NCBI GenBank assembly: GCA_951406725.2
Contig: OX597822.1
Location: forward strand, 45,446,001 to 45,510,000
Origin: Octopus vulgaris
Lineage: Eukaryota
Direction of reading: 5' to 3'
Length of the DNA: 64,000 bases
The notes under the pieces: model-generated
Told to the model about the DNA's origin: nothing
The model's database searches: none
The model's input: the letters and a program-made list of their open reading frames with translations, nothing else
In this document: positions 14,712 through 64,000 of the stretch, in pieces
Layout: every line of letters begins with the position of its first letter
How positions within the stretch are numbered: position 1 is the stretch's first letter
Program-made: the position numbers and the translations under genes

Positions 14712-16000
14712 TAACATACATACATATGAATGTATATATCGGATTTATACAGTTCAGCAAGTGACCACGTCTGAGGCCACGTGATTAAAATCCAAATAGC
14801 TTTATCGTTGAAGAACCGTTTTAATCGCATAAGAAAACTATTTTCTCTGCTTTTCCTTCATTTCTCGAGCTGCCAAAATTTCGCTGACCTTTGACACAGT
14901 TCCAATATAATATCATAATGATAACTACTGCAGCTAACGAAGAGACCTCTATTTAGTTTGGCCATCTGCTAGAAATAGGTGCTATAGTACTCTCCACTCT
15001 CACAACTTGTCTTCGCTAATGTTTGTCCTAAATACATATCGCCTGAGAGAAAGAATTGTTGGTCGTGGTTGGAGCGCTTATAATCATAGGTCTGTTCAAT
15101 TAGTGCTGACCTGCAGCTAAACCAAGAACAACAACAAGAATGGCAATAACAACAACAACAACGCATCAATGCCTTCACAGCGGTTTTTTTTTTTTTTGTT
15201 TCTTTACTTTTTTCGTTTCGCTAATGAGTTCCATTCTAGGTTTTTGTCCATTTACTAAATCTGTAGATGTTAGTAGCCTCGAGGCTGTGACAATTGGGTG
15301 TTGTGGCGAAGGAGCGGCGGTGTAAGGAGGTACGTAATTGGAGTTGTGTGCTCTGAAGTGATATCGATGAAGATGGCGGCGGCGGCGGTGGTTGTGTGGT
15401 GGTGGTGGTGGTGGTGGGTGGTAATGCTAGCATACTGTGGACGTGTTGATGCGTGATAAGGTGATAGTGAAGCAGAGGAATGCTGAGGCGTGGGGAGGTG
15501 TGTGAAGGTGATTTGATCTACGTAGTTTTACAGAGGCAGGTGGTGTGAGGGTGGCGGTGGTGGTTGTCGTGGTTGTCGTAGTGGTAGTAGTGGTGGTAGT
15601 GTGATGTGATGGCGCCTGATATGGACGTGATGGTAAACTGGAGAGGTACGAACGTGTACGGCAGTAGCGCATAGAAGTGTATAAAGGTAGCGAGGTGGAG
15701 AAGCGTTCGATTTCAGACAACACACACACACACACGTAATACATAACGCACATACATACATATATACATACAGGTGTCCCAAAAATGTATGCTGCCCACA
15801 GTGGATGATTATGAAGTCAGTGTATGTAAATATATATATATACGCATGGATATATAAATATATATATATGCATGTATGCATGTATATATATATGTATATG
15901 TATTTGTGAATATGTATGTATATATACATATGTATATATATATGTATATATATATGTATATGTATTTGTGAATATGTATGTATATATACATATGTATATA

Positions 16001-16037
<37 letters not shown>

Positions 16038-16272
16038 CTATATATATATAATTATATAATTATATATATACATATATATATATATGTATATATATATGTA
16101 CATACACATATATATATATATATGTTTATATACACACACATAAAAGCATAAATTTCACATATAGTCCAGCATTTCACTGTGCTCTACAGCTGTTTCAATG
16201 CCACAAACCTTAATTAGTTACATAAAGACATAATTCATTTAATAGTGATACGTTATCCATTCATCTGGATGC

Positions 16273-16329
<57 letters not shown>

Positions 16330-16330
<1 letters not shown>

Positions 16331-16746
16331 TTTTTACTCTCTCTCTTTTACTCTTTTACTTATTTCATTCATTTGACTGCGGCCATGCTGGAGCACCGCC
16401 TTTAGTCGATGAAATCGACCCCAGGACTTATTCTTTGTAAGCTTAGTACTTATTGTATCGGTCACTTTTACCGAACCGCTAACTTACGGGGACGTAAACA
16501 CACCAGCATCGGTTGTCAAGCGATGTTGGTCGGACAAACACAGCACACAAACATACACACATATACATACACATATATATATATATAGATATACGACGGG
16601 CTTCTTTCAGTTTCCGTCTACCAAATCCACTCACAAGGGTTTGGTCGGCCCGAGGCTATAGTAGAAGACACTTGCCTAAGGTGCCACGCAGTGGGACTAA
16701 ACCCAGAACCATGAGGTTGGTAAACAAGCAACATACAACACAGCCA
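16330..16746 (-). mobile_element. SINE A, near full length
   Basis: Aligns with 326-732. Confidence 0.9.
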
Positions 16747-16855
16747 ATATATATATAGTTAATCCAAACAAGAAAGCACAAAAAAACACAACAACGCGAG
16801 GACGTGGAACAAATATAGTATTATTGGACACTCAGGAAAGAAGGAAAGAAGGAGG

Positions 16856-16890
16856 GTTTAACGTTTCGAGCGGAGCTCTTCGTCGGAAAC
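16856..16890 (-). ncRNA. Degenerate minimal hammerhead motif (U4C)
   Basis: GUUU-CCGACGA-A-GAGC-UCC-GCUC-GAAACGU-U-AAAC; a paralog lies at 19444-19478 (+). Confidence 0.5.
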
Positions 16891-17162
16891 ATAGGAGAAG
16901 GAAAGATCCAGAGAAGGGAAGACAGAGGGAAAAAATTGCCAAGGTCGAAGATGCTTAACTAGCTGTCGATTCACTTCATGCTACATATGTGTCAATATCA
17001 TGGCCACATATTTGTATGTTATGCGTTGCATTATTTTTGTTATTTCAATATGCTTTATTGCTATTAGATAGCCCTGAAAGATTCATCAGTATTCATCTGG
17101 TCTACCAAACCTGGTGGAGTGCTACTGAGCTGATAACAGGGATCGCGATCGTTCACATCTTC

Positions 17163-17219
<57 letters not shown>

Positions 17220-17264
17220 AAACAAGTCAAAATAGAAAATGCTAAAATAATTTTATAAAGAAAA

Positions 17265-17308
17265 TTTCAGTACCGGTTTCGGTCATTTTGAGACCTTTTC
17301 AACTGTAA
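17265..17308 (-). ncRNA. Minimal hammerhead motif with U3-A8 core
   Basis: UUACAG-UUGAAAA-GGUC-UCAAAAU-GACC-GAAAC-CG-GUA-CUGAAA; all three stems form. Confidence 0.65.
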
Positions 17309-17864
17309 CGATTAAATAATTAAATTTAGAAAAATTAGAAGAAAAGTTTTTTTAAAGGAATATTTGTATAGTGTTCAAATATAAGTGGCATTCTGCCTTT
17401 CTCTGTCTCCCTTAGTTGCACTTGTGTGTTCGAATCAGTGGTGACTCCGACACTCAGGATTTTCGGGTGTAGCCCGAGTATAAATTTAATAAAGTGAACG
17501 TGTATTTGCAAACTGATTTAATTTCTGCCAACACTGACTTCAAGTATGTAATTGCAGCCAATAACTCGATCTCCTTTTATCGAGCCTGGTCACAGTTTAT
17601 TTATTTTTGTTCAGCGTCTGGCAGTCGTCTTAGAGGTGCCCTGTGTCAGAAAATATCATTTGTAGCTGACGTTCTCTCGACATTGTTCACACGCGCCTGA
17701 CTCGGGCTCAGAAGTTACAGCCCGAGTTGTTATCTATAATCGTAAAAATCAGAAGTAATTCAAATTCGATGTTTTCTTGAAACAATAAATTTCTAATGAG
17801 ATTAGGATTTAAATTCTAATCTATGAAAAGTTTCCGTTCTACAATATTCATAAATGAACATTCC

Positions 17865-18000
17865 GCCGACGTCGACTTTGACTTTGCCTTTCATCATTTC
17901 GGGGTCGATAAATTAAGTATCAGTTGCGTACTGGGGTCGATCTAATCCTCTGGCCCCTGTCTCCCTTCCACAAAAGTTGTGCCTAGAGCAGAAAAGAATA
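17865..18000 (+). mobile_element. MetaSINE-type family C, 3' part
   Basis: GACTTTGCCTTTCATCATTTCGGGGTCGATAAATTAAGTA (Meta-domain-like). Confidence 0.75.
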
Positions 18001-18019
18001 TTCTTAAAGGAACGAAAAA

Positions 18020-18290
18020 TTATCCAGTAACTCGAGCTCACACAAACGAGCCTGGTAGGTATAAAGGACCGGCATTTCTTGTCAAGAGTACAGGTGACAG
18101 TCAGATCGCTGATGTTTGTTGTACAACCTACTGTCGTTATTTCTTTGCTGTTATCCAGTAACTCGGGTTAATACGAACGAGCTTGGTATGTGTAAAAGAC
18201 TAAATGGCATCTCTTGTCAAGAGTACAGGCGACAATCATATCGCTGATGTTTGTTGTGTATTCTGGTGTCATTATGTGATTGCTGTTATT
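18020..18290 (+). repeat. Two diverged tandem copies of a ~131-bp unit
   Basis: TTATCCAGTAACTCG and TCTTGTCAAGAGTACAGG each recur once at about this spacing. Confidence 0.8.
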
Positions 18291-18492
18291 CTGTTCGTCT
18301 GTGTGTAAAGATCAGTTGTGTTTTGCAGAGTTGCTTTATTTTAGCCTTAACTTAGAAATGGAGAAAGACGTAGTGATAGATAAAAAAAATAATAAACCAT
18401 TGGGGGGCTAGAGATAAAGCGGGAAAATGTGAAATTCTTCGAACAGGTATGTGTCTTATGCGAAATCTGTGACGCACATGACATGGAGTCAC

Positions 18493-18549
<57 letters not shown>

Positions 18550-18720
18550 CATCCTTGGCTTTGTTATCTCATTCTGTCTAATATGTACATGCATGACAAT
18601 ACAAGACCCACATTAGACTCCTGACACGTATCATTATCGAACCAAGAGTTTTACTACAGTCTGTCCATAGCACTTACTTAGCGTTACCTGACACTCTTTG
18701 GGTCTTCTAGATACCAATAC

Positions 18721-18772
<52 letters not shown>

Positions 18773-18777
<5 letters not shown>

Positions 18778-19013
18778 AAAATAAGACAAGGTACAAAAAG
18801 GTTCAAAATGATAAAATAATTTTATCATGAAGAACATTTTAGTACTGGTTTCAGTCTTTGCTACTTTTTCAACTTGGAGCAAAGCATGAAAAACAATTAA
18901 ATTGTGGGAAAATCAAATTGAATTAAGTTGAAAAAGTTGCAAAAACAGAAAACGGTAATAAAATGTTCTTCATGATAAAATTATTTTGGCATTTTCTACC
19001 TTGTCTTATTTTC

Positions 19014-19016
<3 letters not shown>
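18773..19016. repeat. Diverged inverted repeat (~95-bp arms) with decayed U3-A8 hammerhead motifs
   Basis: 18773-18875 versus 18924-19016; minus arm reads AG-UUGAAAA-AGU..ACU-GAAAC-CA-GUA-CU. Confidence 0.7.
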
Positions 19017-19051
<35 letters not shown>

Positions 19052-19102
19052 AGATGTACTCGCATAGCAAGTAATTTGATCTGAGATCGTGTGCTGAAAC
19101 GA

Positions 19103-19382
<280 letters not shown>

Positions 19383-20199
19383 CCACATATGAATTGTTGG
19401 CGATTTTCTTCCTCCGTCTTCCTTTTCTATTGTACTTTCTTCTGTTTCTGAAAAAGAGCTCTGCTCGAAACGTTAAATCATCTTTCTTTCCTTCCCTGGG
19501 CGTCTGCTAATACTTTACATGTATCACGTCCTGGCATTGTTGTTTTTTTTGTGGGGGTGGATTTACTATATATATATATATATATATATATAGCACAGCT
19601 TTGAATTTTTTAATCCAACAAATCGGTCCCCGTATTTTTTTTAAAATCCTGATACTTATTCTTAGATGTTTGTTTATAAAACTGTTCTTACATTCCAAAA
19701 GCTATTATTTGGCGTTCAAAAGAAAACGAACGTATTTTTCTCTCGTGGATCGTTTAGCTCAGTGGTACAGATCGCTCATCTGCAATTTGACAGATAAAGA
19801 CTTCGAGTCTCTGCAGCGTGTTGGTGACCACTTTCTTTTTCCGACTGTAAGGGTATTTTACACGATCCTCTAGGCTGTTTTCACGCCTATTCTCTTGCGT
19901 TCGAAATTTCCTTCATTTCTGAAAGACTTATTCAATCAGTGTGTCTTGCCCAACCGCTAGGTTATGAAAACGTAAACTCACCAACACCGGTCGTCAATCG
20001 GTGATGGGGAACAAACACAGACACAAAGGCACATATATGTGTGTATGTGTGTGTGAGAAGTTGGAGGTGGTGGTGGTGGTGGTGGTTGGGGTTAATTCAC
20101 ACATTCAAATAAACACCTCATTGTAGAACTTTTTCAACCAAACTTGGATAACGGCGAATATAGAAGTCGATGCAACGTAGCCACTGATTATAAGACAAA

Positions 20200-47458: not shown

Positions 47459-47986
47459 TGTGTCTGTGTTTGCCCCCCCCCTCTCCAGCATCGCTTGACA
47501 ACTGATGGTGGTGTGTTTACGACATCGTAACTTAGCAGTTCGTCAAAAGAGACCGATAGAATAAGCACTAGGCTTCCAAGAAATAAGTCTTGGGGTCGAT
47601 TTGATTGACTAAAAGCGGTGCTCCAGCATGGCCGCAGTCAAATGACTGAAACAATTAAGAGAGTAAAAGAGTATAGGAGCAGGCGTGGCTGCGTGGTAAG
47701 TAACTTACTTCCCAACTACATGGTTCCGGGTTCAGTCCCACTGCATGGAACTTTGGGCAAGTGTCTCCTCCTATAGCCTCGGGCCAACCATAACCTTGTG
47801 ACTGGATTTGGTAGGCGGAAACTGAAAGGAGCCCGATGTACATGTATATGTATATATTTATTTATGTGCGCGTGTGTGTCTTTGTGTCTGTGTTTGTCCC
47901 CGCCACAATCGCTTGACAACCGATGTTGATGTCTTTACGTCCCCGTAACTTAGCGGTTCGGCAAAAAGACAACGATACAATAAGCA
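47233..47986 (+). mobile_element. Two tandem SINE A copies (second is 3'-interrupted)
   Basis: Heads at 47233 and ~47676. Confidence 0.88.
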
Positions 47987-47987
47987 C

Positions 47988-48103
47988 GGGCATATGGCGT
48001 AGTGGTTAAGAGCGCGGGCTACTAACAGCAAACAAGATGAGGACACATACCCATTCAATGTAAATAATGTACATAATTCCTCATCTCTTAAATATAGAAC
48101 TGT
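47988..48103 (+). mobile_element. Internally deleted tRNA-headed element sharing its tail with the hammerhead-bearing repeat at 63.3 kb
   Basis: GGGCATATGGCGTAGTGGTTAAGAGCGCGGGCTACTAAC joined to AAACAAGATGAGG...AATGTAAATAATGTACATAATTCCTCATCTC. Confidence 0.7.
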
Positions 48104-49099
48104 AACGACCTCACGGTCGTAACAGTTCCATATCAGTTTGAATCCCTTTAACAATTCAAAATAATGACTTTTATTCCTCTTAATTTTACCTCAGTTCATC
48201 TAATTGCATATATTTATCGTTACTTTTCATTAAAAAAAAGCCTTTATTTTTTATATTCAATGTGCATTTTCATTTAACAGATTTTTATTACTGCACATTT
48301 GCGTTGATCTTTTACAAATAATAACAGCAATAATTCCATACTAGGAAAGACATATTGCTTAAGGCTTACAACAAGCTTACTTATATAACAATCTGTGGCT
48401 TGCCGGTTACAACTAGAAAATATTTGCGCTATATTCGTGGCAACGAAAATTCCTGTCGACTATCTGCTATTTATCTCAGCTGGGTGGAGGTGGTAATAAT
48501 GGAGATGACGTGCAGCTGCCTCAGAGTTCTGCGATTACCGCCAAAAACGGCCTTTTTCTCGGACACAATGAGAAAATTCTAGAAAATCGAATCACGCGAT
48601 GCTTAACGCTGAGTGGATGTTTAATAGACCGATCGCGTGAAACTACTGTGGTTTGGCCGTGATGTTGTTCAGCTACATAGTAATACGGTTTCGGATCACC
48701 GTCACATTCTCTTCGTTCTCTCAACTTCACTCCGCCACCTTCTACTCATCTATTCTATACTCCACTCCAACGTACCCCACTTCACTCCACTACACAACAC
48801 GCGTTACACTACTCAACTTCACACTTTTATTTTACACTAAATTCTACTCCACTTCACACCTTTACTTTCTCCTTCACCTCCTTACACTCAAGCATCTTCC
48901 TAGCTGCTCTACCAGCTAGAAATAACAGCCAGATCCTCCTGGAATCATACCCTGCGTCTTAGAAGAAAAAATGCGTTGGAGGTTGTGCAATACACTGGAG
49001 GATAGGCGATGGATGTAAAGTCAACCAAAGGAAGGAGGAGATTTCTTTCCTACTTTCTTACACTTCACTAACAATGCTAATGTCGTGAAATAGTGGCTC

Positions 49100-63016: not shown

Positions 63017-63287
63017 TTTATTCTAAATATAGATTGATCGATCGATTACGGCCGACCCTGCACATGTATGTGTAGACATGTAAAATTTATAAGGAACTGT
63101 TGCTCCAGTATCCATGTCTTGCTTCTCTACGCAGCTGACGCTTATTCAAGGGAAAAGCTGCCGACTTAGGCCGATACTTATAGCGTAGCCTGTGGGAGGG
63201 GAGCAGTATTCCAGCCAAGAACTGGGTTGTATCTATATGAGTATGTTTTTGTGTTCGTTTCCCACTACCGCTTAACAGCGTTGATAT

Positions 63288-63530
63288 TTCCATTATTTAC
63301 ATTTGACGGATGTTTGCCCTCATCTTGTTTAACACGACGTTTCGGCTGATATACCCTTCAGCCTTCACCAGGTGTCTTGGAGAAATTTCGAACCTGGGTT
63401 CTCATTCCTAAGGTATTTTTCGATGTTATTATTATTCAGGTCACTGCCTGGAATCGAACTCGGATATTTGAGGACAAATATCCGTAAAATGTAAATAATG
63501 TACATAATTCCTCATCTCATAAATATAGAA
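63288..63530 (-). mobile_element. B-box plus hammerhead-bearing repeat with inverted terminal duplication, nested in a decayed SINE A
   Basis: Minus: GAGTTCGATTCC (63450-63461) ... GACAC-CUGGUGA-A-GGCUGA..UCAGCC-GAAACGUC-GUGUU (63331-63376); tail 63291-63322 is inverted at 63469-63500. Confidence 0.75.
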
Positions 63531-64000
63531 AGGTATTGGTATATTTATGGCCCCGTAACGTAAAGGTTCGACAAAAGCGAACGATAGAATAAGTACTAGA
63601 CTTAAAAACTAAGTAGGGGTCGTTTTGTTAATCTAAAACCCCTTCAAGAAGGTACTCCAGAATGACCGCAGTCAAATAACTGAAACCAGTTAAAAATACA
63701 TAATTGTGAAAATAATTGTGGGAGAGAGATGAGAGCAAGCTGGACGTAGAGATGTTTATTATAATTTATATTTATATTTTGTATGATATCGTTCGCCATA
63801 TTATCGAGATGGATGGAACCGACAGAACATCGGACGAAATGCCTTGCCTTTTTCAGCTACGTTTCGTTACGTTCTCGGTTCAAATCCGCCCGAGGTCGCG
63901 CTGGCCTTTTTATCCGAGTTCTGTAAAACATTCTAATCAAGACCTGGGTCGTCATGACCGAATATACATACATCACCCAATCCCCTCTTTAAAAAAAAAA

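Follow-up and report, generated by a model that had tools for sequence, protein, structure and literature searches.

Penelope-like elements (PLEs) are known to carry hammerhead ribozymes, tails and inverted arms, as described in the accessible text of PMC4209133, PMC8557442 and PMC11167929. In the Anolis element Poseidon PAc, the ORF overlaps the hammerhead and the tail is bounded by two reverse transcriptase (RT) start sites; in Anolis Poseidon it is mainly the uncleaved RNA that serves as substrate, and internal RT initiation has been seen in vitro (PMC11167929, in the parts available). Hammerheads are also found in short repeats such as Sm-alpha and Sj-alpha of Schistosoma, which are tRNA-derived and apparently transcribed by Pol III (PMC2770079 and PMC6765202, partial text), and in the metazoan non-LTR retrozymes, which are PLE-derived repeats (PMC7761336 and bioRxiv 10.64898/2026.07.22.740005, likewise in part). 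A small-RNA-derived Pol III promoter inside a terminal repeat is known from the TRIMp3 elements Cassandra, Helenus and Ajax, and the accessible part of PMC10886601 argues that their autonomous partners must use Pol II.

The window analysed here, a stretch of 64,000 nt from the genome of Octopus vulgaris, holds two copies of a repeat family that touches on all of these systems. The initial annotation had described one of them as a tRNA-headed SINE carrying a Penelope-type hammerhead. It is almost certainly a 5'-truncated, folded-back copy of the terminal repeat (pLTR) of a Penelope/Poseidon-type element, and we consider it moderately probable that the tRNA-derived segment of this repeat acted as a Pol III promoter. 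Its parts, followed by those of the second copy, are listed below; positions with a sign are counted from the first base (+1) of the tRNA head.

63285 to 63330, minus strand: tail of the main arm, as far as the first of two 3' end sites (ORF nt ~117-129)
63331 to 63376, minus strand: minimal type I hammerhead with a palindromic ACGU stem III and, in this copy, an A6G change
63403 to 63405, minus strand: ATG opening the family's 835-codon RT + GIY-YIG ORF, 29 nt 5' of hammerhead stem I
63425 to 63436, minus strand: (AAT)n spacer, of variable length across the family and a site of later insertions
63437 to 63464, minus strand: 3' remnant (~+48 to +75) of the tRNA-derived head, with the B box
63461 to 63450, minus strand: B box, GAGTTCGATTCC, as read in the sequence
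63461 to 63484, minus strand: 10-bp perfect hairpin in the sequence, probably the fold-back junction
63469 to 63530, plus strand: inverted arm, a full Penelope tail (+213 to ~+277)
47985 to 48103, plus strand: second copy, starting at -3/+1 of the tRNA head and carrying a full tail
47995 to 48005, plus strand: intact A box of the second copy, TGGCGTAGTGG

All coordinates given initially hold, and the sequence does show a B box ~75 nt upstream of a complete hammerhead with an A6G change. On the minus strand the hammerhead begins 74 nt beyond the B box; its stem I is GACAC/GTGTT and its stem II GGCTGA/TCAGCC, followed by GAAA, CG and TC, and its core reads CTGGTGA with one extra A. Across both strands of the 64 kb, a structural descriptor found three hammerhead-like sites, namely this copy and two of another family. 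Among the best 150 of 365 Rfam matches there was no hammerhead or tRNA model; those listed are microRNA models on simple repeats. The window copy is without an A box because it is 5'-truncated at ~+48 of the head. The tail had been reported to recur in inverted orientation at the other end, as it indeed does: this arm extends to the second 3' end site, matches the second copy's tail (copy at 47988-48103) at 90% identity, and appears to be linked to the head remnant by fold-back through a 4-nt TCCG microhomology. By eye, the flanks of this one copy show no target-site duplication. The second copy had been read as an A-box head attached to the same tail, and we find the two joined through an internal deletion from +39 to +197, with loss of the B box and the hammerhead. 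A short palindrome (48092-48133) directly follows its tail. Both family copies border (63537-63600 and 47926-47987) on one end of a further repeat, which is itself abundant and matches the window around a dozen times.

The window also contains a second hammerhead repeat, at 16780-16960 (minus strand) and ~19400-19560 (plus strand), which is ~200 nt long, T-rich and lies within (TA)n. It is younger, with 1,393 candidates of which the best are 96-99% identical, and the copies examined have the core CCGACGA. No tRNA head was seen in it and no common ORF lies within 1.5 kb in 30 loci; it is likely the end of another PLE.

A search of the 2.8-Gb genome (G000) with a query reaching from the B box to the tail returned 3,775 candidates, of which 40 were scored. 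Inspection by eye of 29 other fetched copies found an A box in 23, a partial one in three and none in three. The tail is reached within 450 nt in 22 of the 30 head-anchored copies, which bears out the initial proposal that head, hammerhead and tail form one unit and led us to reject head and hammerhead as independent adjacent repeats. Breaks at (AAT)n were likewise rejected as a repeat boundary: they are at least partly later insertions, the head resuming upstream across them in 5 of 21 such ends. Several loci (L151/L192, L144, L150, L156, L170, L171 and L174) have RT-coding LINE fragments, presumably Dong/R4-like, and another repeat inside the pLTR (AAT)n, splitting head from hammerhead; L151/L192 (G000:C1:54917280-54919743) is one copy divided by ~2.1 kb of RT-coding LINE.

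The hammerhead goes beyond chance, since a 32-nt pattern of it has 2,794 exact genomic matches as against 0 for the reversed control. This pattern is matched exactly by 21 of the 120 hammerheads taken without selection, and by 11 of 78 where sampling bias is smallest, from which we estimate ~16,000-20,000 hammerhead arms; the family's median non-CpG divergence is ~5%. The family hammerhead fits the minimal type I, with a bulged base before a long stem II and a palindromic short stem III. Its core is canonical, CUGANGA being intact in 85 of 120 distinct hammerheads and the complete core in 58; the majority reads CUGAUGA and the sole common variant is N7 (T in 89, A in 28), which in hammerheads is a free position. 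The GUC site named in the initial annotation is present in this copy and private to it: the family triplet is GUU, the base at the putative cut being T in 100 of the 120 and C in five.

The head's best matches are tRNA-Arg among the 30 genomic tRNA genes compared, which span 6 isotypes. Octopus is said to have tRNA-derived SINEs, OK, OR1 and OR2, credited to Ohshima and Okada (1994), and OR1 and OR2 are reportedly tRNA-Arg-related. By description, these resemble our family as tRNA-derived octopus repeats. We take the A and B boxes of the head to agree with the type 2 promoter consensus. Its cloverleaf is decayed, the acceptor and T stems being mispaired by inspection, and ARAGORN called no tRNA in it at default settings. 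OR2 has been termed a CORE SINE (accessible part of PMC4758252). As in SINEs, copies have a tRNA-related head with both boxes at their 5' end; their 3' ends are PLE tail sites with no A-tail. Mobilisation by LINE machinery was rejected for want of a LINE-type tail, and the initial suggestion of Penelope machinery stands, because tail, inverted arms and hammerhead are all PLE features.

An important aspect of the family is that the unit belongs to a coding element. Several copies run upstream into coding sequence, and a search with this sequence gave 2,707 candidates; in 39 of the best 40, the unit or part of it lies right behind the endonuclease region. Seven of the 40 endonuclease-bearing copies (L033, L034, L036, L043, L044, L049 and L052, in a larger duplicated block on contig C31) are duplicates of one insertion, so that the independent count is 33 of 34. 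Copies chosen by the ORF start show pLTR-ORF-pLTR layouts, and the majority sequence modelled from 28 copies is a unit of 2,660 nt (2.66 kb) with one 835-codon ORF. This ORF, with 1,793 homologues, has in order a DKG motif, an RT (RVT_1, E 1e-9) and a GIY-YIG-type domain, with no Zn-finger linker by inspection. The GIY-YIG call comes from motif inspection (VYSIPCSCG..YKGET) and from PF01541 in at least 3 of the 120 homologues listed; Pfam gave no GIY-YIG match on natural copies. A Zn-finger-like linker between RT and endonuclease is present in Neptune and Nematis (PMC8557442, in part), and the domain layout without it, as in the Penelope/Poseidon clade, would place the family there.

In the unit, the ORF stop is followed after ~30 nt by the tRNA head with A and B boxes, (AAT)n, the ATG, the hammerhead and the tail. 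Relative to +1, the stop lies at ~-30, the ATG at +124 and the hammerhead at +153, the predicted cut comes after +193, and the tail ends at +245 and +277. The ORF opens 5' of the hammerhead and continues through it, the tail is the ORF start, and the hammerhead-encoded peptide is retained in the distant relatives P0003 (474 of 829 residues identical), P0124 and P0149. The 3' ends form two clusters ~33 nt apart, at ORF nt 117-129 (45 of 91) and nt 151-165 (37 of 91), and an inverted arm adjoins 56 of the 91. Contigs of four DNA-like sequencing runs, which carry the labels of four organisms, cover ORF end, head, hammerhead and tail, with the junction from ORF end to head bridged by listed contigs in at least three of the four. 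A single ORF with RT and C-terminal GIY-YIG, a pLTR hammerhead, the pLTR-ORF-pLTR layout, inverted arms and tail are together the traits of an endonuclease-bearing (EN+) PLE, and it is near certain that head, hammerhead and tail together constitute the pLTR of a coding Penelope-type element. No intact ORF was seen among 139 RT matches, the longest open frame having 569 codons, and the family now looks inactive. A metagenome scan for relatives with DNA context gave 60 pattern hits, none confirmed.

With Poseidon PAc, in the available account of it, the octopus element has in common the single RT and C-terminal GIY-YIG ORF, the minimal pLTR hammerhead overlapping the ORF start, and a tail of 30-40 nt that arises from two RT start sites located 110-165 nt inside the ORF. 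Copies that are truncated at the 5' end or bear an inverted arm are likewise common in both. The octopus element differs in that its pLTR opens with a tRNA-derived A/B-box head at whose +1 5' ends pile up. Likewise judged from partial texts, Sm-alpha and Sj-alpha are also tRNA-derived hammerhead repeats, with tens of thousands of copies in Schistosoma; they are non-coding and often tandem, and their cleaved monomers lose the promoter, whereas the octopus unit is a coding element's terminal repeat, mostly single or inverted, whose copies keep the head. The retrozymes, so far as their accessible descriptions go, resemble our short copies in that they are hammerhead repeats with no coding capacity, are related to the pLTRs of PLEs and presumably rely on PLE enzymes, but are defined by tandem arrays and circular RNAs, and in our family a second hammerhead on the same strand within 600 nt was found in 2 of 91 loci. 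One locus (L018:1354-2403) is a retrozyme-like head-to-tail array of a 239-240-nt head-hammerhead-tail unit that could form hammerhead dimers. TRIMp3 elements, as covered in the accessible text of PMC10886601, share the small-RNA-derived promoter inside a terminal repeat, but are of the LTR class and non-autonomous, while the octopus head sits in a coding element's own repeat.

This leads us to the status of the short copies. The initial annotation had proposed a separate non-autonomous SINE sharing a tail with an autonomous Penelope element; the shared tail was confirmed, being that element's ORF start, although sharing covers the whole unit including the tRNA head, and the idea of a SINE sharing the tail only found no support. 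Among 79 short and 55 ORF-linked copies, all common variants occur in both and there is no diagnostic site; the tree, of 103 rows, is star-like and has one supported clade of three purely short copies. Because these variants are common to both, the short copies do not qualify as a distinct family, as a SINE distinct from its autonomous partner with only a common 3' tail would be. They do seem to work like SINEs, being short, non-coding, bearers of a candidate promoter and apparently moved by another's protein, and they may have seeded secondary amplification.

A SINE mobilised by Penelope with masters of its own, which recombined into or came to share sequence with the coding element, is in our view quite unlikely. 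Short copies are indeed the larger class (of 75 mapped ends, 15 extend beyond -21), both boxes are present in each full short copy, and the 239-240-nt unit forms the tandem array at L018. Moreover, a stretch of 16 nt just 5' of the head looks like a degraded version of it in inverted orientation (P 0.025), which would fit a fold-back event that fused a head-first RNA to the end of the ORF. Against this, short and ORF-linked copies differ at no diagnostic site and a single supported clade is purely short, and the lower divergence of short copies (0.047 as against 0.054 for ORF-linked ones) is confounded by how copies were picked. The unit is also present in 33 of 34 independent endonuclease copies, so that no headless partner was seen.

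The 5' ends of copies bear most directly on where the RNAs began. Of 92 hammerhead-anchored hits, 91 were mapped; we censored the 16 that end in the (AAT)n zone, which leaves 75. The copies sampled lie in the first ~100 Mb of one contig and were picked by exact-match patterns. The 11 nt from -6 to +4 hold 23 of these 75 ends, a density of 0.063 per nt, where the ORF side has 0.0027 and the downstream pLTR (+104 to +158) 0.0035, and hence a ~20-fold pile at +1. Head-anchored copies start at -6 to +3 in 21 of 30 cases, and among non-inverted copies extending to +5, 10 of 15 end at -7 to +5. No pile lies at the putative hammerhead cut site and the 46 mapped ORF-start copies (1 of 47 was unmapped) show no wall at +194; the cut was thus rejected as the 5' boundary of copies. 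A tRNA-type promoter would start transcripts 7-14 nt before the A box. A Pol III promoter role of the head is likely because most short copies begin right at the tRNA segment, and on balance we think that the template RNAs would have begun at ~-7 to +1 by Pol III.

A similar end pattern could arise without Pol III if a tRNA-SINE fragment had been caught once in the Penelope 3' UTR and the element had kept its Pol II or read-through mode, a history that strikes us as somewhat unlikely. The peak at +1 would then be a hairpin effect, through RT stalling and cDNA fold-back, and the short copies ordinary truncation products, which we find about equally doubtful. A hairpin, one of the two strongest of the unit, is indeed predicted from -19 to +18, and self-complementarity at +1 is in the top 0.5% of unit positions. 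Among 115 head arms that reach +5, 22 have a perfect fold-back at +1, 25 continue into the natural upstream sequence and 68 into other sequence; in the run contigs, loose ends lie ~7 nt before +1 and read as inverted head in three of four runs. Since the tail hairpin likewise collects 5' ends, more weakly than +1 (6 of 46 at +232 to +242), structure alone does raise end density, and variants common to short and ORF-linked copies, together with the passive look of the RNA reads described below, would suit truncation as well. Stalling, however, is expected at the 3' foot of the hairpin (~+18) and not at its loop, and the zone around +18 has only 0.008 ends per nt. The peak at +1 is also about four times the density at the tail hairpin (~0.017, a hand estimate), and 68 of the 115 arms stop at +1 with no perfect fold-back, as do 10 of 15 non-inverted copies.

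That RNase P cut long Pol II transcripts at the tRNA-like segment, giving 5' ends at +1 without Pol III, is highly improbable. While +1 is the commonest single end position (8 of 30 head-anchored copies, 5 of 75 hammerhead-anchored ends), the cloverleaf is decayed and escaped ARAGORN at default settings, and many ends retain 2-7 bases upstream of +1, which a cut there would remove.

A further question is whether the upstream-pLTR tRNA promoter drove a 2.9-kb, terminator-free, uncapped RNA through the ORF. What speaks for it are a sense strand of 2,660 nt with no TTTT (expected 2.9-4.7, P 0.004-0.025) and two to three ORF-start copies (L343, L375, L109) that begin at -1/+4. TTTT is at its expected frequency in 18 other ORFs of the loci (52 against 46.9) and in two other PLE families of the same genome (98 against 96.7 and 72 against 80.1). 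The gap is nonetheless weak because GGGG is also missing (0 against 3.3 expected), Markov-1 and Markov-2 nulls weaken P to 0.08 and 0.23, and the PLE controls amount to two families. Few copies with the ORF start reach back to the head, five of 46 extending beyond the (AAT)n zone, which speaks against a Pol III start for such copies. We regard it as unlikely that the whole coding element relied on Pol III, and no less unlikely that, transcribed in this way throughout, it would also have been its own SINE factory.

One PLE family that served as a control (L271-L300, e.g. G000:C19:14372084 and C22:44551709) is young: its open frames are up to 1,312 codons long, many of its copies are almost identical, and inverted pairs are common. 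Another, diverse PLE group (L301-L330), with a GLYRDD motif and open frames to 934 codons, we take to be Naiad-like. Cephalopod Naiads have been described as remnants only (PMC8557442, in part), a view that these long frames may contradict.

RNA-seq was examined on one copy (L061), in ~6% of each of three runs. Both read directions are equal, and 71-76% of reads continue into dissimilar flanking sequence. Starts do not pile up at +1 of this copy, whose head is diverged and whose (AAT)n part was skipped, for which reason depth over the head is not interpretable. The reads at this locus look passive.

Taken together, the following route would account for the copies. Pol III would start RNAs at about -7 to +1, and the element's RT/endonuclease would bind the tail and begin reverse transcription inside it, as Anolis Poseidon does in vitro. 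Initiation at the first tail of an RNA starting at +1 would thus yield exactly head-hammerhead-tail short copies, SINE-like and 245-280 nt long, and each, by keeping its own promoter, could seed further copies. Initiation at the downstream tail would give 5'-truncated copies bearing the ORF, and the inverted arm would be added by template switching once copying nears its end. For cleavage the hammerhead would need to dimerise or to be assisted by protein, and it would not set the ends of copies.

Hammerhead SINEs with a tRNA part are already known in Schistosoma Sm-alpha, and a tRNA head inside the pLTR of a coding PLE was not found in the open papers searched. The accessible portions of PMC11167929, PMC8557442 and PMC4209133 do not describe such a head, the only tRNA mentioned there being Sec-tRNA, and the main text of bioRxiv 10.64898/2026.07.22.740005, so far as available, mentions no tRNA, promoter or Pol III. 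Hammerheads are not mentioned in the available part of PMC13282606, and those of PMC6962438, PMC4758252 and PMC3531059 contain nothing on this family. What is new here is the ~20-fold pile of 5' ends at the tRNA +1, the intact A and B boxes within a decayed cloverleaf and, as weaker evidence, the lack of TTTT.

The family touches on two open points, namely where Penelope RNAs start and whether Penelope has SINE-like passengers, and thousands of natural 5' ends in the genome mark a likely RNA start at a candidate tRNA promoter inside a terminal repeat. Repeat annotation would file such copies as SINEs or tRNA pseudogenes. If the ORF were also made by Pol III, this would run against the published expectation that an autonomous partner depends on Pol II. 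If our reading is true, a promoter captured upstream of the tail, together with internal RT initiation, would amount to the birth of a SINE in one step: the pLTR would become a self-renewing short element, a Penelope counterpart of Cassandra and Helenus, and could be a model for the origin of Sm-alpha-like repeats.
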